A program made the position numbers and the translations under genes. A stretch of 64,000 bases of DNA from an uncultured Gammaproteobacteria bacterium (GTDB lineage Bacteria > Pseudomonadota > Gammaproteobacteria > Steroidobacterales > JABDLF01): NCBI GenBank assembly GCA_963759075.1, contig CAVWXZ010000004.1:5677-69676 (forward strand), read 5' to 3'. Positions 1,312 through 62,176 of the stretch are shown here, in pieces (position 1 is the stretch's first letter; each line of letters opens with the position of its first letter). The notes beneath the pieces are model-generated. The model saw nothing but the letters and a program-made list of their open reading frames with translations, was not told where the DNA came from and did not search any database.

Positions 1312-3510
1312 TTATGTCCATGCGCTGCCGAGCTGAAAGATCAGGAGAGCGCCCAGATAGCCGAGCAGCGTCATGTAGGCCCAGCCAAAAATCGGCCAGC
1401 GCCAGCTGTTGGTTTCGCGACGTATAACAGCCAGGGTAGCGGCGCACTGCAGGCACCAGGCATAGAACACCAGCAGACCGAGCACCATCGGCAAGGTGAA
1501 TACGATTCGTCCATCCGGCCAGCGCGCCGCCCGCAGCCGTTCGGCGAGGCTGCTGACATCTGCTTCCTGACCCACCGCATAAATGGTGCCCAGCACCGCC
1601 ACCACGACCTCGCGTGCTGGGAAGCCGGCAATAACAGCCGCGCTGACTCGCCAGTCCCAACCCAACGGGGCAAATACGGGTTCGACAGCCTTGCCGGCAC
1701 GCCCCAGCCAGCTTTGCTCAAGGCGTGCCGCAGATGCCTCGTTGTCCAGCCTGCTGAGTTCTCGGTCCAGCGCTTCGCCTGTGAGCGTGGACTCCACGGC
1801 TTGCTGCGCGCCGGCGAGCTGAAAATCAATCTCGGGCGAACGCGGAAAATAAGCCAGTGCCCACACGAGCACCGCCACGGTAAAGATCACCGTACCGGCC
1901 CTGCGCAGGAAAATGCGGGCGCGGTCCAAAAGCTTGATCAGCACGCTGCGCCAGTTGGGCATTCGAAACTCGGGCAGGGCCAGCATGAACGAGGGCTTTG
2001 GGCCGCGCAAAGCGGATTTGCGCAGCAGCAGGGCCGTGCCGGCACCGCCCACGATGCCCAGCATGTAGAGGCCAAACAGTACGAGGCCCTGGATGTTGAA
2101 AAGACCGACGCGCGTGGAGGGCACAAAGGCTGAAATTAACAGCGCGTAAACCGGCAGCCTCGCGGAGCAGGTCATAAACGGTGCTGCAAGAATCGTGGCG
2201 ATGCGATCGCGACGATTGGGGATAACGCGCGTCGCCATGATCCCGGGCACCGCGCAGGCGAAGCTCGACAACATCGGGATGACGGACTGGCCCGAGAGGC
2301 CGACAGTCCTCATCGCGCGATCCATAAGAAAGGCCGCGCGCGCGAGATAACCCGTGTCTTCCAGGAGAATGATAAACAGAAACAGAATGAGGATTTGCGG
2401 CAGAAAGATCACGACGCTGCCCACGCCCGCAATCACGCCGTCCGCGAGCAGGCTGGTCAAAGCGCCGGCTGGCAAGGTCGCGTTGACCCAGTTCGTAAGC
2501 AGCCCGGCCGTCGCATCGATGCTGTCCATCAGCGGAGTTGCCCACGCAAATACGGCCTGGAACACCACGATCATCACGACAAAAAATGAGATCGTGGCCG
2601 GCACCGGGCGCTCCATGAACTCTACCAGCCGTGTGGATATTGTCTCCAGAGGTGTGGCCTGGGTCTGCACGTCATTCAACACCTGGCGGATCCAGCGATA
2701 ACGGTGGCGGGCTTCCTCTGCCAGCGGCGGTTTTTCTCCGAACAAGCTTCGTTTGATAGTTTGAATACGCAGGCGATCTTCCGCGTTTGAACTCGCGATG
2801 ACACGGTTGTTTTCAGTATCACCGTCGATCAGTGCACGTTCGAGTTCAATCCGTCGCGGTTCGAAATCAAGGTGCAGCTTGCCGCGCAGAGAGACCTCGG
2901 CTGCGCGCAGCGCGGGCCAGAAGTCGGGCACTTTCGGTGCTGCTGCGCCGGGCAGCGAGGCCAGCGCCCGCTCCAGCTTTTCCATGCCGTGGCCTGTTGT
3001 CGCCACCACCGGGCAAACGGGTATCCCGCACAGATGCTGGCTGAGTTTTTCTACGTCGATCACCACGCCCTGGCGTCGTGCAACATCTGTCATGGTGAGC
3101 GCAACGACCACGGGCAACTGCAGTTCCAGCAGCTGCTGAAGCAGGTACAGCCCCTGATAAAGGCGCGTCGCATCCACCACGGCAAGGATGCCCGCGGGTG
3201 GCTCGGTGCCGGGCATCCTGCCCAGCAATACATCCACGGTAATGCGCTCGTCCAGGGAGAAGGTGCTGAGCGCAAAGGTGCCCGGCAGGTCAACCAGTTC
3301 AAGTGACTTTTCGTACAGGCGTGCGCGCCCTACATGTTTTTCTACCGTAACGCCCGGGTAGTTGGCGGTCTTCTGCCGCAAGCCAGTCAACCGGTTGAAA
3401 AGCGTGCTCTTGCCACCATTCGGATTGCCGACCACCGCGATGGTGGCCAAGCCGACGTTATGGATCTGGATTTTCTCGAGCGGGACACCAATGACGTTGG
3501 GCTTATTCAT
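1312..3510 (-). CDS. feoB: Ferrous iron transporter FeoB
   Basis: GNPNGGKST G1, NYPGVTVE, DLPG, then a membrane domain with EDTGYLARAAF and PFMTCSARLPVY. Confidence 0.97.
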   Translation of the reverse strand: MNKPNVIGVPLEKIQIHNVGLATIAVVGNPNGGKSTLFNRLTGLRQKTANYPGVTVEKHVGRARLYEKSLELVDLPGTFALSTFSLDERITVDVLLGRMPGTEPPAGILAVVDATRLYQGLYLLQQLLELQLPVVVALTMTDVARRQGVVIDVEKLSQHLCGIPVCPVVATTGHGMEKLERALASLPGAAAPKVPDFWPALRAAEVSLRGKLHLDFEPRRIELERALIDGDTENNRVIASSNAEDRLRIQTIKRSLFGEKPPLAEEARHRYRWIRQVLNDVQTQATPLETISTRLVEFMERPVPATISFFVVMIVVFQAVFAWATPLMDSIDATAGLLTNWVNATLPAGALTSLLADGVIAGVGSVVIFLPQILILFLFIILLEDTGYLARAAFLMDRAMRTVGLSGQSVIPMLSSFACAVPGIMATRVIPNRRDRIATILAAPFMTCSARLPVYALLISAFVPSTRVGLFNIQGLVLFGLYMLGIVGGAGTALLLRKSALRGPKPSFMLALPEFRMPNWRSVLIKLLDRARIFLRRAGTVIFTVAVLVWALAYFPRSPEIDFQLAGAQQAVESTLTGEALDRELSRLDNEASAARLEQSWLGRAGKAVEPVFAPLGWDWRVSAAVIAGFPAREVVVAVLGTIYAVGQEADVSSLAERLRAARWPDGRIVFTLPMVLGLLVFYAWCLQCAATLAVIRRETNSWRWPIFGWAYMTLLGYLGALLIFQLGSAWT

Positions 3511-11412: not shown

Positions 11413-12720
11413 TCAAAGTTCAACGGCACGGCGCTCGCAATAGACGAGGGCAGTGACTGCAAGCAGGCCGGCAACAGAGACGCCCGCCAGGAACAGGAAG
11501 AAATGCTGATGACCTGCCAGCCCCGGCGCGGCATCCAGAATCCGTCCGGTGACTGCGCCGAAGAACACATCAGGTGTATAGCCGATGAACGCGATAAACC
11601 CGACCGTGGCGCCGGTCAGATGCTTCGGTACCCGGGTTTCCTCCAGCAATGCGTAATACAAACCACGGAATGCATAAACGGCCAGGAAGCTCACCAACAG
11701 GTTGGCGAAGATTAACGTGGTCCAGCCGGGCGCTGGCGCAGCAATGCCCAGCATGCCGTACAGGCCGATAAGCAGCGCAAAGCACAGGCCTGTTATTTTT
11801 CCCGCCCCGTAGCGATCAGCGATGATGCCGGCTGCGATGCAGCCGACGGGACGCAGGTAGCTCGCATACGCGCTGAAGTTAGCCGCCTCGATCTCGTTCA
11901 TGCCGAGTACCTGGAACGCATACAGGGAGTAGTTATCGAGGCCTTTATAACAACAGTAGGCGCACACGATGATCAGCGCGTGCAGCCAGGCCACGGGTCT
12001 GCGCATCACTTCCAGCATGCCGGCAAGCGGGCTGGATCGTTCGGGCGAGGCGGTCGGTGCTATGGCCGGCACGAACAGCCAGACCAGGGCTGCGGCGAAA
12101 AGCGTCGCCACCGAATAAAACAGGATAACGCTCCGGAACCCCGCCAGACGTTGCTGACCGGTCGTAAGCTGCACGTCTGCCGGCAGGTACACTTGCAACA
12201 GGAGCACGGCGACCACTGCCATGACCGAGGCGATCAGTCCCCGGCCACCGTCCAGGAGGCCAAAGGCGAGCCCCTGAGAGGTGTCGCCTCCCCATTCACG
12301 GGTCGCACGGATCATTGCCGCCCAGAACAGGAATATGGTCGACACACCCCAGCACGCATAGACAACTGCGGTACCCGTGAACTGAGGGATGGTGGCCAGA
12401 TACAGTCCACCCGCGGCCGTGGCAACAAGCGAAACCACCATGAGACCGCGGGCAGAGAAGCGGTCTGCCAGAGGGCCGCCGAGATAGTAAGAAGCCATTG
12501 CAGCGACGCCATAGAAGGCGAATACGTCACCCAGCTCAGTATTGGTGAAGCCGAAAACATCCAGAAAAGTGGGTCGAAAGAAACGGGTGGTATGGAACGG
12601 GAGGCCAAAGATCATCTCGCCGGCGAACACCAGGGCGAAAATAAACAGAAAGCTGGAAAGTCGGGAATGACGCAAACGATTGCCCCGGGTTAAGTTGTGC
12701 GGGGGCCAATTATTACTCAT
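11413..12720 (-). CDS. MFS transporter
   Basis: ~12 hydrophobic segments, GPLADRFSAR and GIIADRYG motif-A repeats; start uncertain. Confidence 0.88.
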   Translation of the reverse strand: MSNNWPPHNLTRGNRLRHSRLSSFLFIFALVFAGEMIFGLPFHTTRFFRPTFLDVFGFTNTELGDVFAFYGVAAMASYYLGGPLADRFSARGLMVVSLVATAAGGLYLATIPQFTGTAVVYACWGVSTIFLFWAAMIRATREWGGDTSQGLAFGLLDGGRGLIASVMAVVAVLLLQVYLPADVQLTTGQQRLAGFRSVILFYSVATLFAAALVWLFVPAIAPTASPERSSPLAGMLEVMRRPVAWLHALIIVCAYCCYKGLDNYSLYAFQVLGMNEIEAANFSAYASYLRPVGCIAAGIIADRYGAGKITGLCFALLIGLYGMLGIAAPAPGWTTLIFANLLVSFLAVYAFRGLYYALLEETRVPKHLTGATVGFIAFIGYTPDVFFGAVTGRILDAAPGLAGHQHFFLFLAGVSVAGLLAVTALVYCERRAVEL

Positions 12721-12819
12721 ATGGACAGGGCGGGCTGCCGTCAGCGTGTTGCCCACTTTGGTCAGGGCTTGTGGCACAGTATCGGCCTGCGTCCAAAACG
12801 AACAGGGGAGGAGGCACTG

Positions 12820-14007
12820 ATGAACCCGGCAACTCGACACATGGTTCTGTTCGCCGCCATCCTGCTGGTGTGCACCGGCTGCGCCTCCGTGCCTGGCGAG
12901 CCGGGGCCGGGGGGAGAGACTGCAAGCCTGCATACCGCGGTCGGTCAGGAATCTCTCGGTACCGCGCGCCAGACCATGCAGACGGCGCTGGCAGAAAGCG
13001 GTGCACCCGCACTAGTGGTTTCGGTTTGGCAAGGCGACGCCATCGTGTGGTCCGAGGCTTTTGGCATGGCCGACCTCGAGCACCAGGTGCCCGCGACACG
13101 TGCCTCGAAGTTTCGGCTCGGCAGCGTATCGAAGGTCCTGACGGCAATCCTCGCGGCCAGGCTGGCGGACGCTGGTGAGGTGGATCTGGACGCAGACATC
13201 AGGCAGGCGCTCCCCGCGTTCCCGGACAAGGGTGCGCCGATCACGCTGCGCCAGTTACTCGGGCACCTTGCGGGTATACGGCATTACCAGCGCAAGGATT
13301 TTGACTTCTCGGTGCCCGGTGGAATGATCGATACGCGACCGTATGCAAGCGACCAGGAGATCTATTCCCTGTTCTTTGACGACCCGCTCGTTTCCAGGCC
13401 CGGTGCTGCGTTCAATTATTCAACCTTTGGCTATACGCTGGTCGGCGCAGTGCTTGAGGCGACGACCGGGCGCAGCTTTTACGACTTGCTCGACACCTAT
13501 GTACTGGCGCCGGCTGGCGCGAGCGAAACGGTGATTGACGACAGGTTCGCGATCATCCCGGACCGGGTCGATTTCTACGATCCGACCAGCGACTACGAGG
13601 GCTATTTGTCACGCCAGCTCGGGCCGGTGGTCAATGCCTGGCCACTGAACAGCGCCTATAAGCGCCCCGGGGGCGGGCTGATCGGCACCGCTGACGACAT
13701 GGTGCGGATCGCTGCGCTGCTCTTCGAACCTGGCTTCCTTTCGCAGGCTATGTATACGCAGATGTTTACGTCACAGACGGACGCCTCCGGTAAGCTCACC
13801 GGGACAGGGCTTGGCTGGCGGGTGGGTAAAGATGCGCAGGGCCGAACGATCTACCAACACCGCGGGACGCAGCAAGGCAATCGATCTTTCGTAATTATTT
13901 TTCCTGACGAACACATGGCTGTGGCGATACTCTCGAACCTCAGGGCCCGCCCGGCCAATATCGAGAAGGTTGCCGGGCAGATCGCTGGGGTATTCCGCCA
14001 GAACTGA
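12820..14007 (+). CDS. Serine hydrolase, beta-lactamase/class C-like family, probable lipoprotein
   Basis: FRLGSVSK (SxxK), LLGHLAG, FNYST, HRG; lipobox-like VCTGC; GGAGGAGG RBS. Confidence 0.9.
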   Translation: MNPATRHMVLFAAILLVCTGCASVPGEPGPGGETASLHTAVGQESLGTARQTMQTALAESGAPALVVSVWQGDAIVWSEAFGMADLEHQVPATRASKFRLGSVSKVLTAILAARLADAGEVDLDADIRQALPAFPDKGAPITLRQLLGHLAGIRHYQRKDFDFSVPGGMIDTRPYASDQEIYSLFFDDPLVSRPGAAFNYSTFGYTLVGAVLEATTGRSFYDLLDTYVLAPAGASETVIDDRFAIIPDRVDFYDPTSDYEGYLSRQLGPVVNAWPLNSAYKRPGGGLIGTADDMVRIAALLFEPGFLSQAMYTQMFTSQTDASGKLTGTGLGWRVGKDAQGRTIYQHRGTQQGNRSFVIIFPDEHMAVAILSNLRARPANIEKVAGQIAGVFRQN

Positions 14008-14096
14008 TGCGCGCTTAGACGAGAGGGACGCAGGGCGGAGCACATCACTACTCACATTCAAACAGTCCGCGAGTCACTGCATAACTGATACCATGG

Positions 14097-14133
14097 AATC
14101 GTTGGATATCCCGTAATTCGCCAACGTAATTCG
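14097..14133. repeat. Degenerate solo repeat arm with duplicated junction
   Basis: AATCGTTGGATATCCC followed by CGTAATTCG twice; resembles the arm at 15094-15127. Confidence 0.5.
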
Positions 14134-14159
14134 GAACTCATTCTGCCGCACACATACCG

Positions 14160-14957
14160 ATGTCTGAAAACGCACATCTGCCGAGCGACTCCTTTTCTGA
14201 AAAACTGATTGCCTGGTGCATGATCACGCTCGCCGTTGGCATCGGCGGTGTATCGCTGGTCGCCTTTGGCATCTTTGTGTTGGCTGGTTCGCCTCGCCTG
14301 GTCGAGCTGAATCTGAGCCTGTGGGGCGGCTTGGCTATGAACACGGGCCTGTCATTGCTGTTCTTTGTGCAACACAGCGGCATGACCAGGCGTTCGTTCA
14401 AACAGTGGATGGCGCGCTTCGTTCCCAGGCACTACACAGGCGCTGTCTACGCGATTGCCTCGGGCGTAACCCTCCTGGCTGTCGTCCTCCTCTGGCAGGA
14501 ATCACAATACGTCATCGCGGCTGCATCAGGCTACCTGTGGTGGCTTGCACGAGTGGCGTTCTTTCTCGCCGTGTGCGGCCTTGCCTGGGGTGCTGTGTCA
14601 TTGAAGGGTTTTGATACTCTGGGCCTTACACCAATCCTTCGCCGAAACCGGGCCGGCAGCGCATCATCACCAGCTCTTGCGGTTCGTGGGCCGTATCGAT
14701 GGGTTCGCCATCCACTGTACTTCTTTGTGCTGGTGATGATCTGGTCGCAGCCGTATCTCACTGTCGACCGTTTGCTGTTTAACGCACTGTGGAGCCTGTG
14801 GATTGTCTTTGGCGCCGTGCTGGAGGAGCGCGATCTGGTCGCCGAGTTTGGCGACGGCTATCGTGTCTACCAAAGCAAGGTCCCGATGTTGATACCCCGC
14901 CGGCTCGTGGGGTGGATTGGCCCCAACGAGGACAGCTCAGGCGCGGGAACTCGGTAG
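14160..14957 (+). CDS. MddA/nurim-like membrane methyltransferase (ICMT/PEMT superfamily)
   Basis: FFVQHSGMTRRSFK, GPYRWVRHPLY, LEERDLVAEFG..YR.Y. Confidence 0.75.
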   Translation: MSENAHLPSDSFSEKLIAWCMITLAVGIGGVSLVAFGIFVLAGSPRLVELNLSLWGGLAMNTGLSLLFFVQHSGMTRRSFKQWMARFVPRHYTGAVYAIASGVTLLAVVLLWQESQYVIAAASGYLWWLARVAFFLAVCGLAWGAVSLKGFDTLGLTPILRRNRAGSASSPALAVRGPYRWVRHPLYFFVLVMIWSQPYLTVDRLLFNALWSLWIVFGAVLEERDLVAEFGDGYRVYQSKVPMLIPRRLVGWIGPNEDSSGAGTR

Positions 14958-14978
14958 GCGTCAATTCGGTGGCAATTC

Positions 14979-15066
14979 GGGACATCCACCTTGCTTTAAA
15001 AAAACCAGCTCAAGCTAAGCATTTGATAAATAAATGAATTGGGCGCCGGCAATGGGTGGGTGTCCT
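14979..15066. repeat. 88-bp palindrome-ended element with central IHF consensus (left copy)
   Basis: GGGACATCCACC...GGTGGGTGTCCT; TAAGCATTTGATA (15016-15028) is the reverse complement of WATCAANNNNTTR; 65/88 ungapped identity (hand count) to 16728-16815. Confidence 0.8.
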
Positions 15067-15093
15067 CATTCCTGACTTTATCCCGGCGACGAG

Positions 15094-15127
15094 AATGGGT
15101 GGATGTCCCCAAGCTCGCCCAAGCTCG
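15094..15127. repeat. Extra right-type arm with duplicated junction
   Basis: AATGGGTGGATGTCCC (exact inverse of GGGACATCCACC) followed by CCCAAGCTCG twice. Confidence 0.7.
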
Positions 15128-15178
15128 GATGAGTGCCCTCAAACCCGTCAATCTTGCCGCCGAAAAAGACATATTTCT

Positions 15179-15207
15179 TTGCGTTTTCATGGTGTTAGAC
15201 GTATACT
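15179..15207 (+). promoter_or_regulatory. Sigma70 promoter of the DUF222-HNH gene
   Basis: TTGCGT-N17-TATACT; AAGGAGGAG RBS and ATG 15247 downstream. Confidence 0.7.
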
Positions 15208-15223
15208 GTATATATGTACAGAT
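15204..15223. promoter_or_regulatory. LexA (SOS) box
   Basis: TACTGTATATATGTACAGAT = CTGT-N8-ACAG with AT-alternating spacer; overlaps the -10 element. Confidence 0.85.
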
Positions 15224-15246
15224 GGTCTTTTGACAAGGAGGAGTCC

Positions 15247-16669
15247 ATGTCACACGCAGCAGAATTAGGCGCCAGGATCACGGAGCTTTGCAGCCAGATT
15301 TACGCGGCCGAGCATCGCCTCATGGAGCTCATCCGGGAGTTCGACGAGCACGAGTACTGGGCCGAGTTGGGCCTTGCTTCCTGCGCCCATTGGCTCAATT
15401 TTAAATGCGGCATCGGCATGAACGCGGCGCGCGAGAAGGTGCGGGTGGCGAACGCACTCAAGAGCCTGCCCAAAATCAGCGAGCGCTTCGCCAGGGGTGC
15501 GCTGAGCTATTCCAAGGTCCGGGCCATGACCCGCATCGCCGATGAGACCAACGAAGATTCTCTCCTGATGATCGCCGAGCATGGCACGGCCCATCATGTG
15601 GAAAAGCTGGTGTCGCAATGCCGCAAGGTGAAACGCTTACAGGAAGCGGAGATTGCCGGTACGGCGTATCGCGATCGCGAGCTCACGCACTACTACGACC
15701 ACGACGGGTATCTGGTGATCAAGGCGCGGCTGCCAGCCGAGCAGGGGGCCATGGTGGTGAAGGCGCTCGAGATGGCGATGGATCGGGACTTTCGTGAAGA
15801 GGGGCCAAAAAGGTGTCTGAATTCAATTCGTGGGCCAAAAAGGTGTCTGAATTCAATTCAGACACCTTTTTGCGGGGGTCAGAATTCAATTCAGACCCCT
15901 GATCATGACGTTACCGCGGTAACGCCAGACCGGGAACCGGAGCGAGCGCCCATCGCGGCCCGGCGCGCTGATGCTCTGGCAGCTGTGGCCGAGACTTACA
16001 TGAACAACAGCGAGTCTTCAGGCTCCACGGCGGATCGCTATCAGGTGGTGGTGCACGTTTCAGAGGGGCCGCTCAAACAAGGCCGGGGTCAGAATTCAAT
16101 GCTGACCCATGATCGCGACGTTACCGCGGTAACGTCTCATCTGGAGGACGGCCCCCACGTTACCGCGGAAACATCTCGCCGGATTTGCTGCGACAGCTCG
16201 ATTGTCGCACATTCTTAAAAAAGAGAACGGCGAGCCGCTGTCCATCGGGCGACGATCCCGGACCATTCCGCCGCCCATGCGGCGGGCCTTACAGGCCAGG
16301 GACGGCGGCTGCCGCTTTCCGGGCTGCACGCATACTCGCTTCGTGGACGGTCACCACATCAAACACTGGGCCGACGGCGGTGAGACCAGCCTGGATAACC
16401 TGATTTTGCTCTGCCGATACCACCATCACCTGGTGCACGAGGGGGGTTTCGACTGTGAGAAGAGGGCAGGTGGCGAGGTGATATTCAAAGACAGGTCGGC
16501 TGACAGGTTGCCCGGGTATTGGGCGCTGCCAGGGGTAGCAACCGCAGACCTCGAACGTTGGCTTGACAAGGAGTTCTTCGAGCCGGGTATTCAGCCTGAC
16601 GCGTGCGTCACGAAATGGCGCGGTGAGCGGATGGACTACCAGATGGCGGTGAGTGGGCTGATGACTTGA
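15247..16669 (+). CDS. DUF222 domain HNH endonuclease (13E12-like), split by one +1 frameshift near 16200
   Basis: N-terminal SCAHWL..AAREKVRVA..LSYSKVRAMTR; C-terminal RDGGCRFPGC..DGHHIKHWADGGET..NLILLCRYHH..VH. Confidence 0.88.
15802..15899. repeat. In-frame REP-like palindrome cluster inside the DUF222 gene
   Basis: 28-bp exact repeat at 15802-15829 and 15832-15859; perfect 18-bp-arm hairpin 15836-15872; GGGGTCAGAATTCAATTCAGACCCC at 15875-15899. Confidence 0.85.
16085..16136. repeat. Second copy of the 50-bp intragenic palindrome module
   Basis: 45/50 identical to 15875-15924; contains perfect 20-bp palindrome GACGTTACCGCGGTAACGTC (16117-16136). Confidence 0.85.
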
Positions 16670-16727
16670 AACGGATTCTTTTAACGAGGACCTGGGCGGC
16701 CAGAACGGGCAATTTGGGAGGCAAATT

Positions 16728-16815
16728 GGGACATCCACCTTCATCTGGCAAAGTCAGAGCAAGCTAAGCGTTTGATACATAAAGAAAATAAACGTCGACA
16801 ATTTGTGGGTATCCT
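16728..16815. repeat. 88-bp palindrome-ended element with central IHF consensus (right copy)
   Basis: GGGACATCCACC...TGTGGGTATCCT; TAAGCGTTTGATA at 16765-16777 plus adjacent A-tract; preceded by duplicated GGCAAWTTGGGA. Confidence 0.8.
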
Positions 16816-16917
16816 GCAATCACGGTTTTTGATTTACTGTGTCCTCTGCTTCGCAGTCAGTTCGGCTGCTCTGACAAGATTAATGATTAGAAACTGAAGA
16901 CACTGGGGGAGACGACG

Positions 16918-17556
16918 ATGACGCAACATGGTATTTCAGGCGCCAGAGCAATTGCTGGCATTGCTGCATTGATTATGACCGCCGGACTCCTGGGCGGCTG
17001 TGGAACAACCTCTGGCCTGCAAGCGGCCGACGCTGCGGCCGAAGAACGCATCGACCTGTCATCCTATAGCTCTGCCGTCATCAGTGATTTCGCTGATGCG
17101 GCTACGGCGGGCAAGAAGTTCAAGAGTGGCGAAAAGGGTGCAGAGAAAAAAGCTGAGTATCAGGCTGACGTGCAGGCCGCCAGTGTCACTTTCTCAGAGT
17201 ACCTTCAGGCTGAGCTGAACAAGTTGAATGTGTTCGACAACGTACGGCGCGGCGATGATGCTGCGGAGGGCGAGTTGCTTATCGGCGGCGAGATAACGCG
17301 GTTTGAGCGTGGTAACGCGGCCGCGAAATTTCTCATTGGCCTGGGTGCCGGCAGCACGTACTTCGACGCTATCGTGGTCATCAAAGATGGAATGTCAGGA
17401 GAAGAGCTCGGGCAGATTGTCGTTGACAAAAACAGCTGGGTGCTTGGCGGCGCGATCTCTGCCTCACAGAATGTTGAGGGATTCATGCGCGGTGGCGCAG
17501 AGAAAACGGCAAAAGAACTCTACATGGCACGCTTCGGCAAGGAGCCAGAAAAATAG
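16918..17556 (+). CDS. DUF4410-like lipoprotein
   Basis: Lipobox LLGGC; G.IT.F..GNAAAKFLIGLGAG pattern. Confidence 0.72.
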   Translation: MTQHGISGARAIAGIAALIMTAGLLGGCGTTSGLQAADAAAEERIDLSSYSSAVISDFADAATAGKKFKSGEKGAEKKAEYQADVQAASVTFSEYLQAELNKLNVFDNVRRGDDAAEGELLIGGEITRFERGNAAAKFLIGLGAGSTYFDAIVVIKDGMSGEELGQIVVDKNSWVLGGAISASQNVEGFMRGGAEKTAKELYMARFGKEPEK

Positions 17557-17571
17557 GAAAGTGACCTGGCT

Positions 17572-18315
17572 CTAGGTGTCCGGGTAACGGCGTCGATCAA
17601 GATACGCCGGCACCCGCATGGCCGGCAACACGCCAAAATACATATAGCCGGCCGCCACTACCCAGGCGTTTGGCAAGGTGAGTGCAAACACAATGGACAG
17701 TACGCCGAAGATTGCGCTGATTGTCCAGGCTTGCACGGATATCCTGGTTTTTCGGAGCTCAATCTGATTCAGCCCAAGTGCTGCACAGTTGAGCAGAGCC
17801 GCACGATACAGCTGACTGATGATGACAGACAGAGCGCAATAGCCGACAGAATAGAAGACGAAGATCATACGCAGCTCGTAGTAGCTCGTGATCTCGTAGC
17901 TGGTCGGCAGAAAGCCGCCCGTGAGATTTGCAAACATACCCTCGAAGATCATGCGCAGCGGGTACACGTAAACAAGCATCACAAATATCATCACAAGGCT
18001 GTAGAGCACTGTCTTGGAATTTTCCAGTCCATAGCAGCGGCTCCACAGCCGGTGCTGCAGCCAAAACATCATTAGCACGGCGAAGCTGGCAGCAAAGCCC
18101 GGGATTCGGCTCGCAGCAACGATCATCTCCGGATAATTCGAAGGGATCGAGTCGAATGAGATGACCAGCAGCGTCAGCACGAATGCAAAAGCCGCATCAA
18201 CAAAGGTGTCCAGGCGCGTGACTTCCACTCCCCGCAGCCGAAAGTCGTTTTCGACCAACAGGCTGTCCAAATCGCGGTCGGTCCACTGCTTATTCTCTGA
18301 TGCGTGGGTAGTCAT
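17572..18315 (-). CDS. TMEM175/DUF1211 family membrane protein (K+ channel-like)
   Basis: RLDTFVDAAFAFVLTLLVI resembles the TMEM175 RxxxFSD motif; FWLQH; about 6 TM segments. Confidence 0.8.
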   Translation of the reverse strand: MTTHASENKQWTDRDLDSLLVENDFRLRGVEVTRLDTFVDAAFAFVLTLLVISFDSIPSNYPEMIVAASRIPGFAASFAVLMMFWLQHRLWSRCYGLENSKTVLYSLVMIFVMLVYVYPLRMIFEGMFANLTGGFLPTSYEITSYYELRMIFVFYSVGYCALSVIISQLYRAALLNCAALGLNQIELRKTRISVQAWTISAIFGVLSIVFALTLPNAWVVAAGYMYFGVLPAMRVPAYLDRRRYPDT

Positions 18316-18411
18316 ATTCTGAGCCAGCCGGGGAGGGAATACGCACTGAGTGTGGCAGGACAGGCTGACAGAAGCCACAGCGGTTGGCCTTGCGTATTCA
18401 GAGCTTCGAAT

Positions 18412-19011
18412 CTAGTTTTGTGTGTCCTCATATCCCCACGGGGCCGGAGGTGCTTCGACGGGATTGGTCAAATCGAAGTCCACCCTGAATTCCCGGCCTT
18501 GGCGAATCAGTCGGTAGGTGAATCGTTCAGGGTAGATAAATATCTGCCAGGTATTGCCGACAGACTGCGGAATGGCATTTCTGACAAACAATTCTTTTGA
18601 ATACTGGTCGGCCGGAAAAGACTGTACCTGTGCCCACCCGGCATCGACAGTATGGCCACCGTACTGGGTCAGCGTATCCTCAGTGCCGTCGCTGTGCCTG
18701 TGGTCGTGCTTGAGCGACAGGCCGGAACCCGTCTTGGTAATCAGCCAGGTGCGAGAGGCATCTTCACCTACGTGAAAAGGAATTTGTAGTTGCGTCTCGT
18801 CGCAGCGCCTGACGTGCATGATGAGCTTCTTGTTCGCAAAACTATCACTGCTGGCGTTATCGACGGTGACCGTTCCGGAATATGCTTTGCCGCAGAGCTC
18901 GCTGATCGCGCGGAAGAATTCATCTTGCGTCGGGATAGATGTAGGGTTTTCTTGCGCGAATCCGGGTACTAACAGGAGATTCGAAAGTAAAGCGAGAACT
19001 AACATTTTCAT
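18412..19011 (-). CDS. Secreted hypothetical protein
   Basis: Signal peptide; LCGKAY, IPFHVGEDASRTW, LKHDHRH, PAPWG blocks look conserved; function unknown. Confidence 0.8.
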   Translation of the reverse strand: MKMLVLALLSNLLLVPGFAQENPTSIPTQDEFFRAISELCGKAYSGTVTVDNASSDSFANKKLIMHVRRCDETQLQIPFHVGEDASRTWLITKTGSGLSLKHDHRHSDGTEDTLTQYGGHTVDAGWAQVQSFPADQYSKELFVRNAIPQSVGNTWQIFIYPERFTYRLIRQGREFRVDFDLTNPVEAPPAPWGYEDTQN

Positions 19012-59385: not shown

Positions 59386-60889
59386 TCACAGAAAACGCTC
59401 CTCGGGTGGGCCCCAGGTCCTGCCGTCGCGGCGAATCAGCTTGTCCGCGGCGTCGGGCCCCCAGGTGCCCGCAGCATACGCGAGTGGTTTATCGCCGGAG
59501 GTTTTCCATGCGCCGATGATCCCGTCGATCCAGCGCCATGCCTCTTCGACCTCGTCACCTCTTACGAACAGGGTCGGATCGTTGCGCAGCACGTCGAGCA
59601 GCAGGCGCGCGTACGCGCCCGGCGTGCGCGGCAGGTTGAAAGCTTCCTTGAAATTCAGGTTAAGGGAAACCGGCTTGAGCTGAATGCCCTCGGCTAGGCC
59701 CGGGACCTTGTTCATCAGCATCAGCATGATGGTTTCTTCCGGCTGCAGGCGCAGGACGAGTCTGTTGGCCGCCTGATTGTCGGTCAGTTCACCGCCAAAA
59801 ATAGAATGCGGCACGTTCCTGAACTGGATCACCACCTCGGAAAACTTCACCGGCAGGTTCTTGCCGGTGCGCAGGTAGAAAGGCACACCAGACCAGCGCC
59901 AGTTATCGACAAATGCGCGCAATGCGACAAACGTTTCGGTCGTGCTCTCGCGCAGATCATCGTGACCATCGAGGTAGCCCGGGCACCTGCTGGCCGTTAT
60001 TAAAGCCGCTGGCATACTGACCGCGCACTGTGTCACGCGCGACCGTGTCGGAATCAAAACGGCGCAGGGATCGCAGGACTTTGAGCTTTTCGTCGCGCAC
60101 CGCATCGGGATCCATGCTGCCCGGCACCTCCATCGCCAGCAGGCACAGCAGTTGCAGCAGGTGATTCTGCACCATGTCGCGCATGGCGCCGAAGTTGTCG
60201 TAGTAGCCGGAACGTCCTTCGACACCGATGGTTTCCGAGACCGTGATCTGCACGTGATCTATGCCGCCGGCATTCCACACCGGCTCAAACATCCTGTTGG
60301 CAAAGCGCAGCGCCAGGAGATTCTGAACTGTTTCCTTACCCAGATAGTGATCAATGCGAAAAATCTGTCGTTCCGGGAAAAACTGCGTGACCTGTCGGTT
60401 GATGAGTTGCGACGAAGCCAGATCGTGACCGAGCGGCTTTTCCAGCACCACTCGGCTGTGATCATCCACCAGTCCTGTTTCCGACAGATTCCGGCAAATT
60501 GCCGAGAACAGCGTGGGCGGCGTCGCCAGGTAGTAAACGGTGTTGCACGCCGACTCGGCGCCACCGCAGGCACTGACCAGTGCCGTAAACTTGCTCTTGT
60601 CTGTGGCGTCAATCTCAAGGTACGTGATTTTCTGCGCCAGGGCTTCCCACACCGCTGAATCATAGTCGGCATCGGGCAGGTAATTGCGCAGGCTTTCCCC
60701 AGCGTGCTCGAGATAGGCCTCGCTCGTCATCGCAGTCCGTGCCGCCGCGATAATCCGCCCCGCGCGCACCAGCCGGCCATCCCGCTCGAGATAAAACAGT
60801 GCGGGCAGGAGTTTGCGCAATGCAAGGTCGCCGTTGCCGCCAAATATGACCAGGTTGCAGGCCTGCCCGGCGCCCATCAGCCCGCGCAC
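59386..60889 (-). CDS. zwf: Glucose-6-phosphate 1-dehydrogenase, one frameshift near 59985
   Basis: GDLALRKL, EKPLG, RIDHYLGKE, DMVQNH, NWRWSGVPFYLRTGK. Confidence 0.96.
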
Positions 60890-61061
60890 CTTGCGAATAG
60901 CGCACAGCCGATCGGCAGAGATTTCTTGCAGTAAAGTGCCATCATTTCTTGCTGGAATGCCTGATCGCGAAGCTGCGAAGTATACCTAAGCCGGGCGCAA
61001 CGCTCAGGTATGAAAATGTCCGGCAGGACATTGTGGCCCATTCTGTCGGGGCCTGGCTGGC

Positions 61062-62176
61062 TTATTCGACCCGCTGGCTGATTTTTATGCTGACAGGCGG
61101 CATGTTGCTGCTGACGTCCAGCGTCTGCTCGCCGAACAGGTCGCCGGGCTGGGCCACGGGTGTTCCGCCGAGCGCTATGCGCGCGACAATTTCTATCTGG
61201 CTGACGCTACTCAGGTTGCGGCCAGCCACCATGGCGTCGTCGTCGCTGAGTTCGAGCGTGAACGGCAGATCCCTGACGCTCATGCGCCGGGCTGCCAGCG
61301 GTGGACCCGGCGATGTGCTGCGGGCAAGAACGAACACCGGCGTGCCAGGCGGCACAGAACCGAGCACTCCGGGCTCGGCCGACACGCTCACTCGAATTAC
61401 GGGCGGGCCACTTGCCTCTGTGGGCTGGGCCGACTCGCTGGCGGCTTGCGGTACCGGCGCCGGGGTCGCCGCCGGGGTCGCCGCCGGGCGCTAAGCTCCT
61501 TCGGCGGTGACGGCATCGCGGCCAAAGGCATCACTTGCGCGCTCATCCGGCTCTGCGCATCACTGATCCGTTCCTCCAGTATAGGGCGCAGCGTTTCCGG
61601 CGGCGCCTGGCTCAGGAGTTGCTGCCAGCGGGACACAGCGAGCCCGAACTGTGACTGCTCGTAGGCAGACATTCCGCCGTACCAGAGCCCGCGCGGATCA
61701 TTCGGTCGCTCCGCGAGAATCTGTTCGAACATCTGGCCGGCCTCGCCCGTCAGCTGACTCTGATCTGCAAGGACCGTCGCCTCGGCATAAAAAGCAAGCA
61801 CGTCGAGGTTATCGTTGCCCGCGAGTTTGCGCGCCTGGGCATAGGCAGTGGCTGCATCACCGTAGCGTGCCATCATTGTGAAAGACTTCCCCAGCATCAT
61901 CCATTCATCGAGACTGCCGCCCTCGCGCTGCAGGCGATTTGCCAGTTGCTCGACGATGACTGCGAGGTCTTGCTGCTGGGCATGGGGGGCCGGGTCGGGC
62001 GCTCGCCAGCTGCCAAGCGACAGGTAGATGCCAAGAGCCAGCGCCGGCACGCCGAGCCCGGTGACGAGAAACACCAGGTACCGGGGCGAATCCGACTTCG
62101 CGCGCATCACCGGATAAAGCAAGGCCGCGACTGCCGCGATTGACAGGACAATCGTTATAATCCAAAACACAGTCAT
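61062..62176 (-). CDS. ccmI: Cytochrome c biogenesis protein CcmI/CycH (TPR), frameshift near 61400-61500
   Basis: N-terminal TM segments, Y..LG, TPR helices, C-terminal VFVLAR..GPPLA..LP..LSD..AM..ARI. Confidence 0.85.

Follow-up and report, generated by a model that had tools for sequence, protein, structure and literature searches.

A repeat pair flanking a DUF222-HNH gene probably belongs to a low-copy dimer family linked to a Y1 HUH transposase

Introduction

Repetitive extragenic palindromic (REP) and BIME elements of Escherichia coli have architectural, terminator or 3'-untranslated-region (3'-UTR) roles. TIRtrons, described by Di Nocera et al. 2013 (PMC3733652), are Y1 transposase genes flanked by terminal inverted repeats (TIRs) that share the sequence GGGGWSAS, and TIR copies also occur as dimers and clusters. 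The 13E12 genes of Mycobacterium tuberculosis carry DUF222; SOS control is documented for them (PMC3381160; PMC8151990), and the family is tied to recombination and inversions (PMC13157036). Here we describe a 64,000-nt stretch of DNA from an uncultured gammaproteobacterium (the window; G000:C4:5677-69676), in which a DUF222-HNH gene lies between two co-oriented repeats. A reading of this stretch from its sequence alone had proposed that the repeats and the gene together make up a cassette of a new kind, able to be excised or to move. We find it probable instead that the repeats are members of a dispersed, low-copy family of dimers linked to a Y1 HUH transposase encoded on another contig, with the HNH gene an independent neighbour. 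The proposed module would then be two known kinds of element standing side by side, and is not one to be pursued as a cassette.

The repeat pair and its dispersed family

The two 88-nt repeats (14979-15066 and 16728-16815) are co-oriented, lie 1749 nt apart and align without gaps at 65 of 88 positions, exactly as had been claimed. No ungapped 88-nt alignment of one intergenic stretch with the other scores higher; shuffles (n = 100) reached at most 42 identities, with a mean of 37.8. A repeat search extended the pair to 102 nt, at 74% identity, with the following layout in window coordinates:

14965 to 15066, plus strand: repeat copy L, of dimer type, with left arm GGGACATCCACC (14979-14990), IHF-consensus centre (integration host factor; 15016-15028, minus strand) and right arm GGTGGGTGTCC (15055-15066)
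15085 to 15112, plus strand: extra right arm belonging to copy L, 81% identical to 15042-15068 and in tandem with it
16714 to 16815, plus strand: repeat copy R, with left arm (16728-16739), IHF-consensus centre (16765-16777, minus strand) and degenerate right arm GTGGGTATCC (about 16805-16814)

The arm and centre blocks described earlier were confirmed in both copies. The left arm is identical at 14 of 14 positions and the central block at 22 of 24, the right arm reads GTGGGT(G/A)TCCT, and each centre holds, on the minus strand, an exact match to WATCAANNNNTTR, the IHF consensus. The proposed inversion of the right arm relative to the left stood for copy L, where GGTGGATGTCCC (15098-15109) is a further, exact inverted partner of the left arm; this extra right arm (15098-15112) is also its best partner (12/12 exact; 93% over 15 nt). 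In copy R the symmetry is weak, with about 8 of 12 positions matching by eye and the arms unpaired in the minimum-energy fold. Copy L begins 7 nt past the stop codon of a methyltransferase-like open reading frame (ORF; 14160-14957), while copy R lies 44 nt past the HNH stop codon, upstream of a DUF4410 gene (16918-17556). Rfam gave no match across 13500-18500.

Whole-element BLASTN against the genome (assembly G000; 2.69 Mb in 34 contigs, 66% complete) returned no copies beyond the two in the window. This result was misleading, because members of the family have only short arms and a short centre in common, and a motif search did find the family. The arm motif GGACAYCCAY occurs at 56 exact sites in G000, forming 11 clusters, against 14 sites and no clusters for the reversed control, and in every cluster the plus-strand sites lie to the left of the minus-strand sites. 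The clusters occupy gaps between long ORFs and, at 11 in this incomplete assembly, are low in copy number. A search for the paired-arm pattern in 401 genomes of the order recovered comparable structures at further sites in G000 as well as in other genomes. The tallies of this search, of DUF222-HNH genome hits and of peroxidase genes include one unpublished genome, G018, which contributed no locus and on which no claim depends.

Five elements in G000 have the architecture and the centre (GCTAAS-N3-TTGATWA) of the window repeats, namely the two window copies on contig C4 and three elements on contig C3. Identity is 66-74% within C3, 71% within C4 and 53-59% between the groups, and the IHF consensus is exact in four of the five (by eye). 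The C3 elements likewise have multiple right arms. Two of them form a sister pair (C3:61825-61945 and 64034-64165), co-oriented and 74% alike, that brackets a gene of the animal haem peroxidase family (An_peroxidase; 62273-64021), each copy beginning approximately 12-45 nt past a stop codon. Of 301 genomes surveyed in the order, 19 had an An_peroxidase match, and motif clusters were absent from all 11 peroxidase homologue loci outside G000. The remaining clusters adjoin GH30/DUF2306 genes and further unrelated genes.

Two further loci, G000:C26:65430-65810 and C16:247440-247600, show the largest arm array (three to four plus sites and three minus sites, with 73-nt sub-repeats) and runs of GGCGAAATTTGG-like short repeats that lead into arm sites; a 'GGCAATTCGG' doublet ahead of the left arm in each window copy is similar to such runs. 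DUF2306 and GH30 genes are duplicated in inverted orientation across G000:C26:69700-75300, each arm of this large duplication having a motif cluster; the region could be a genuine palindrome or a product of the assembly. We considered C26:70326-74677 as a transposon with inverted ends, and rejected it as being this inverted duplication, possibly an artefact of assembly.

A Y1 transposase gene flanked by the arm motif

A trans-acting RAYT/HUH enzyme had been named as one possible catalyst, along with a search for a RAYT- or IS200-like gene carrying the arms. The guess fits and the search succeeded: the only Y1 HUH transposase gene detected in G000, a RAYT-like ORF of 326 aa (C26:44872-45849), is flanked by two plus and then two minus GGACAYCCAY sites, arranged as inverted arrays. 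The protein carries the signature motifs NHYH, WE and YVDLNP. It matches NCBIfam REP_Tyr_transpos over residues 140-199, the part containing the Tyr (E 7e-9), and Pfam Y1_Tnp over the N-terminal residues 17-79 (E 0.005), each below the curated cut-off. Homologues of the protein carry the names 'REP element-mobilizing transposase RayT', 'Transposase IS200-like' and DUF1568. An AlphaFold model built from eight sequences was poor (predicted local distance difference test, pLDDT, 56). The top Foldseek rows for this model were IS200, IS608 and ISDra2 transposases and 4er8, all weak (E of at least 0.08), with nothing at E ≤ 0.001, and a PDB sequence search with the protein found nothing relevant. 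Read against Table 1 of PMC6006769 (Quentin et al. 2018), its motifs, length and core insertion suggest a RAYT/TIRYT-like protein that fits TnpA_Y1 subclass 2.3.

The association between arm motif and transposase gene is found well beyond this genome. The motif flanks 8 of 12 transposase homologue loci from G000 and five genomes of the order. For a wider sample we took 80 loci of the transposase family from named Gammaproteobacteria, including Woeseiaceae, Lysobacterales, Thiodiazotropha, Endozoicomonas, Alcanivorax and Colwellia. Of these, 32 have the exact motif upstream on the gene strand, 21 have it downstream on the opposite strand and 41 have at least one of these placements, as against 2 with the wrong orientation. 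With the relaxed motif GACA[CTG][CG]CAY, the expected orientation is present at 71 of the 80 loci and the wrong one at 7, and reversed-motif controls gave 0 and 5. Three genomes of the same genus had no match to the C26 transposase and no paired arms, save one two-mismatch match in G002.

Comparison with known repeat and transposase systems

The G000 system resembles the TIRtrons and their TIRYT transposases in having a Y1 HUH gene flanked by inverted repeats other than REP hairpins. Most G000 sites read GGGGACAC, the sites take the form (G)GGGACACCCAC, and dimers and clusters are present; in PMC3733652 the TIR copies are moderate in number. However, the window arms match GGGGWSAS at only seven of eight positions, the flanks of the G000 gene are arrays of two to three short direct sites, and the G000 dimers carry an IHF consensus. 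Quentin et al., moreover, place the 26 TIRYTs of PMC3733652 in subclasses 2.1, 2.2 and 2.5, and not in 2.3 (PMC6006769).

With subclass 2.3 as described in PMC6006769, the C26 protein shares the NHYH, WE and YVDLNP motifs, a near-median length (326 aa; subclass median 325), a core insertion of about 55 aa and a gammaproteobacterial host. The repeats are where it differs, since that paper gives 'REP: no' for the subclass, whereas here 71 of 80 loci have the oriented flanking GACA[CTG][CG]CAY and one genome has dispersed dimers. This entry fits a picture in which short sites that form no hairpin went unnoticed, and the supplements of PMC6006769 and PMC3733652 might already list flanking repeats for proteins of this subclass. 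A subclass reported to be without REP-like partners has a conserved, strictly oriented flanking motif, which provides a concrete substrate for biochemical tests, and IHF-centred dispersed dimers accompany it in at least one genome.

The analogy drawn earlier with the IHF-centred BIME and RIB elements holds, in that inverted arms surround an IHF consensus. As in E. coli BIME-1/RIP (RIB) elements and REPIN-RAYT systems, there are two inverted arms, a linker with an IHF consensus and an extragenic position just downstream of genes, and as in REPIN-RAYT systems the repeat also flanks a single-copy Y1 transposase gene. The G000 arms differ in forming no palindromic hairpins and lacking GTAG, in occupying about a dozen loci and not hundreds, and in accompanying a transposase of another subclass. 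The REPtron hairpin of 20-40 nt with a GTAG or CGTC tag was not found here: GGGACAYCCAC is not self-complementary, and the folds show arm-to-arm pairing only. Taken together, the repeats are a further example of the known kind in which TIR or REP sequences accompany a Y1 transposase.

The DUF222-HNH gene between the repeats

The gene enclosed by the repeats, with its signals, comprises:

15179 to 15241, plus strand: expression signals, namely a possible -35/-10 pair TTGCGT...TATACT (by eye, under the scan threshold), a LexA-type box CTGTATATATGTACAG (15206-15221) and AAGGAGG (15235-15241)
15247 to 16218, plus strand: ORF1, the DUF222 part, 323 aa, with its stop after a frame break
15802 to 15900, plus strand: palindromic in-frame block in ORF1, made up of a 28-nt tandem duplication, a terminator-like 18+18 palindrome, perfect and bearing A- and T-tracts (15836-15872), and a second hairpin (15875-15900); fold z -7.6
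16202 to 16669, plus strand: ORF2, the HNH domain, in another frame; break near 16204

This region had been read as a single transcription unit. The LexA box, AAGGAGG and the DUF222 and HNH domains (PF02720, E 4.9e-13; PF01844, E 2.3e-7) are all present, but a simple promoter scan of the locus found no sigma-70-like site at threshold, and the gene, with its ATG at 15247, is divided between two ORFs. Among DUF222-HNH family promoters, a CTG-N10-CAG box abuts a TATACT-like -10 region in 12 of 12, and the box of the window gene points to putative LexA/SOS control. Homologues are in a single reading frame throughout. Near 16204 a contig of run X3 (depth 2.3; over 180 nt it shows one gap and 2 further differences) and a more distant contig of run X4 are each one letter shorter, which brings the two ORFs into a single frame; the break may thus reflect either a mistake in the assembly or sequence variation.

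The palindromic block at 15802-15900 is not present in the closer homologues. Its 35-nt core of A-tract, stem and T-tract sits just downstream of two genes in a same-genus genome, in the manner of a bidirectional terminator; its positions in same-genus genomes are 2671-2704 and 3379-3413 of locus L027 and about 2910-2945 of locus L028. The 35-nt palindrome has no second copy in G000.

G000 has one DUF222 match, and G032 has matches at seven places. For paralogous HNH units in G032, G019 and G011, homology spans only from about -120 to -170 to the stop codon, with no such repeats. None of 11 DUF222-HNH homologue loci in related genomes has a flanking direct repeat, and none has a paired arm motif. 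The suggested enrichment of repeat copies next to DUF222-HNH genes was therefore not borne out, with no copies at the 11 homologue loci and the arm clusters adjoining unrelated genes.

The window gene is a 13E12-type gene with a LexA box. Like 13E12/REP13E12 of M. tuberculosis, it joins DUF222 to HNH and has a LexA box in its promoter, and its family reaches many copies per genome in some relatives (the seven places in G032). It differs in its gammaproteobacterial host, in its CTGT-N8-ACAG box, in having one copy in G000 and in being broken in the assembly. The flanking repeats of the window are not part of the family unit.

Origin of the repeat pair

The account that we consider probable begins with the dimer as a short, non-coding element in which inverted arms, GGGACAYCCAC, surround an AT-rich centre with an IHF consensus. 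Such dimers would be non-autonomous, and would be copied or maintained in trans by the C26 transposase through single-strand cleavage and joining, with bending by IHF bringing the arms together. New copies would tend to land close by, on the same strand and just past stop codons. The pair around the HNH gene would then be a local duplication into two successive intergenic spaces and not the ends of a cassette, and the DUF222-HNH gene would be an independent, LexA-box-controlled 13E12-type unit that elsewhere is found without such repeats.

Several points weigh against this account. Transposition, excision or binding is not described for this transposase subclass in PMC6006769 or PMC3733652, and the former reports no REP-like structures beside subclass 2.3 genes. 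The arms are neither self-complementary hairpins nor GTAG-tagged and thus make no classical REP, the single-strand folds of the window copies are unremarkable (z -1.5, -0.8 and +0.6), and both the Pfam and the NCBIfam match of the transposase fall under the curated cut-offs. The window arms read GGACATCCAC, and the sites beside the G000 transposase read GGACACCCAC; the T form of the arm does flank transposase homologues in G019, G013 and G284, and a second transposase could be absent from the 66%-complete assembly. Finally, co-oriented pairs bracket single accessory genes twice in G000, where about 0.1 close pairs would be expected by chance, as estimated from the 11 cluster positions. Local copying, if it occurs, explains these two bracketing pairs, with a cassette role still conceivable.

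Some of the same observations would suit immobile, domesticated sites, that is, IHF-bent architectural, terminator or 3'-UTR elements with a function for the host and a purely historical link to the transposase. Each element lies about 7-45 nt past a stop codon, the IHF consensus is kept in four of the five while the spacers drift, the copies are old (53-74% identity), and E. coli REP/BIME elements have such roles according to PMC3479197. We nonetheless regard domestication as unlikely, given that no terminator-like site was predicted at either copy, that the folds are weak, and that copy number is low, with the three same-genus genomes lacking paired arms apart from the single two-mismatch match.

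A Y1 HUH enzyme acting on one strand could also treat co-oriented elements as the left and right ends of a cassette and, in trans, excise the enclosed gene (HNH, or the peroxidase on C3) as a single-strand circle. The two co-oriented sister pairs around single accessory genes are what this would predict, both bracketed genes are patchy (one DUF222 match in G000; peroxidase in 19 of the 301 genomes), and a cognate-looking transposase is present in the genome. Yet flanking motif clusters were found at none of 11 HNH and none of 11 peroxidase homologue loci elsewhere, neither unit was found in a second context, and the copies are only 71-74% alike and therefore attest no recent event, so that we judge such excision improbable. 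The original proposal, in which the repeats and the HNH gene make up a new mobile cassette, found no support, the repeats being dispersed beside unrelated genes and missing from the flanks of all 11 HNH loci.

No empty-site alleles were found, on thin data and with no usable syntenic relatives. The same-genus genomes had no match to the methyltransferase-like protein, and a DUF4410 gene turned up only in G003 (67% identity), where its surroundings differ and the repeat is absent. A metagenome scan with the methyltransferase protein returned five loci at up to 63% identity, none with the motif, the HNH gene or DUF4410. Four public runs of one study contributed small shares (0.07-0.21) as short contigs; none of these spans either repeat and no joint appeared among them, so that the runs are uninformative on excision and empty sites.

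More improbable again is an insertion driven by the HNH protein, in which the unit entered an ancestral element and duplicated it, or in which a circle of HNH gene plus element recombined with a chromosomal element, leaving direct repeats like attL and attR. Both copies are complete and stand directly outside the promoter-to-stop unit defined by the paralogues, and recombination and inversion are linked to 13E12 in M. tuberculosis (PMC13157036). On the other hand, the other HNH copies are without such repeats, the same arrangement surrounds a nuclease-free peroxidase gene, identity runs across several blocks and not one crossover core, and the gene is broken in the assembly. The suggestion that the HNH protein itself is the catalyst likewise found no support.

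Identification of the repeats as integron attC sites in an integrase-free cluster, with the HNH gene as their gene cassette, can safely be rejected: the elements share with attC sites a size of 88-102 nt, co-orientation, a position shortly after ORFs and a variable centre enclosed by inverted ends, and the genome has a true integron integrase, but the RYYYAAC / GTTRRRY cores that form the attC consensus are missing from the element ends, the real attC sites beside intI on C18 (…CTAACAAGG…GACGTTAGG…) are a different sequence family with no GGACAYCCAY site listed there, and the HNH gene comes with a promoter and a LexA box of its own.

Palindromes inside DUF222-HNH genes

A side finding within the HNH gene may matter more than the flanking repeats, and is the result most worth following up. 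Two perfect palindromes are present:

15909 to 15924, no strand assigned: perfect 16-nt palindrome CGTTACCGCGGTAACG, copy 1, encoding DVTAVT
16119 to 16134, no strand assigned: perfect 16-nt palindrome CGTTACCGCGGTAACG, copy 2, inside the HNH gene

An imperfect third copy lies at about 16158-16173, directly before an ETSRR motif. Of 21 DUF222-HNH loci, 15 contain the perfect 16-nt palindrome NGTYNCCGCGGNRACN one or more times, four have only copies with one broken pair and two have none. There are one to three perfect palindromes per gene, in a variant specific to the genome. Compensatory changes at pairs 1/16, 4/13 and 5/12 distinguish the variants (for example CGTTACCGCGGTAACG, CGTTCCCGCGGGAACG, TGTTTCCGCGGAAACA, CGTTTCCGCGGAAACG, CGTCTCCGCGGAGACG and CGTCCCCGCGGGGACG), and these changes turn the peptide VSAET into VTAVT or VPAGT, a non-conservative replacement.

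The palindrome seldom occurs elsewhere. G000 has 1746 CCGCGG sites and only seven perfect 16-mers of any kind, and both of those with the NGTYNCCGCGGNRACN form are in the HNH gene; none of the 49 CCGCGG sites in 300 kb of transposase loci has the form. The perfect copies of G019 (9/9, in three genes) and G759 (5/5) are all inside HNH genes. Lone copies were found in intergenic DNA of G032, where seven perfect ones comprise six of the commonest in-gene variant, CGTTACCGCGGTAACG, and one CGTTTCCGCGGAAACA, and in G038, which has three of its own variant. When the surroundings of nine of these ten were searched with tblastn, no HNH gene was found near. Two lone copies that we inspected lie 20-26 nt past stop codons. 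Relatives proved too distant for orthologous sites of a lone G032 palindrome to be aligned. One copy in G038 (G038:C21:201854) is bordered on a single side by some 32 nt from the 3' coding part of an HNH gene, and the homology therefore ends at the palindrome. In Rhodococcus, a plasmid-borne palindrome precedes a DUF222-HNH gene by about 108 nt and is not within it.

At the protein level, V[STPA]A[EVGA]T occurs in 86 of 150 representatives (at 50% identity), up to five times. Residues covary as the palindrome predicts (P-G, odds ratio 29, p 8e-9; T-V, odds ratio 49, p 1e-4; relatedness is ignored in these values), and residue pairs that do not fit a palindrome also occur (P-E 16, T-E 9). The family numbers 32,209 cluster representatives at E ≤ 0.001. 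For Actinobacteria and phages, a plasmid search gave the one Rhodococcus gene and a partial Arthrobacter match, and a phage search gave one candidate contig. In the literature on DUF222, REP13E12 and 13E12 repeats and on 13E12 palindromes, represented mostly by titles and abstracts, we found no description of the palindrome.

These observations offer a tentative lead to the function of DUF222-HNH (13E12) genes from inside the gene itself. The palindrome might be the cognate site of an SOS-induced nuclease, with damage-induced cutting driving gene conversion, duplication and rearrangement between copies; on balance we think this more doubtful than likely. The palindrome nevertheless gives a testable handle on how DUF222-HNH genes spread and why they are found at rearrangement breakpoints.

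Other features of the genome

The true chromosomal integron of G000 lies on contig C18, with its integrase at 60352-61662 (458 bits against a cut-off of 265) and a canonical attC array, of the type (…CTAACAAGG…GACGTTAGG…) given above, at about 62500-71000. Its attC sites are spaced at 0.4-2.8 kb, and a 0.6-kb cassette stretch is duplicated at 91-97% identity. Two genes upstream in the window, an ORF at 12697-14007 belongs to the Pfam Beta-lactamase family (PF00144, E 3e-59) and may encode an esterase or a penicillin-binding-type enzyme.

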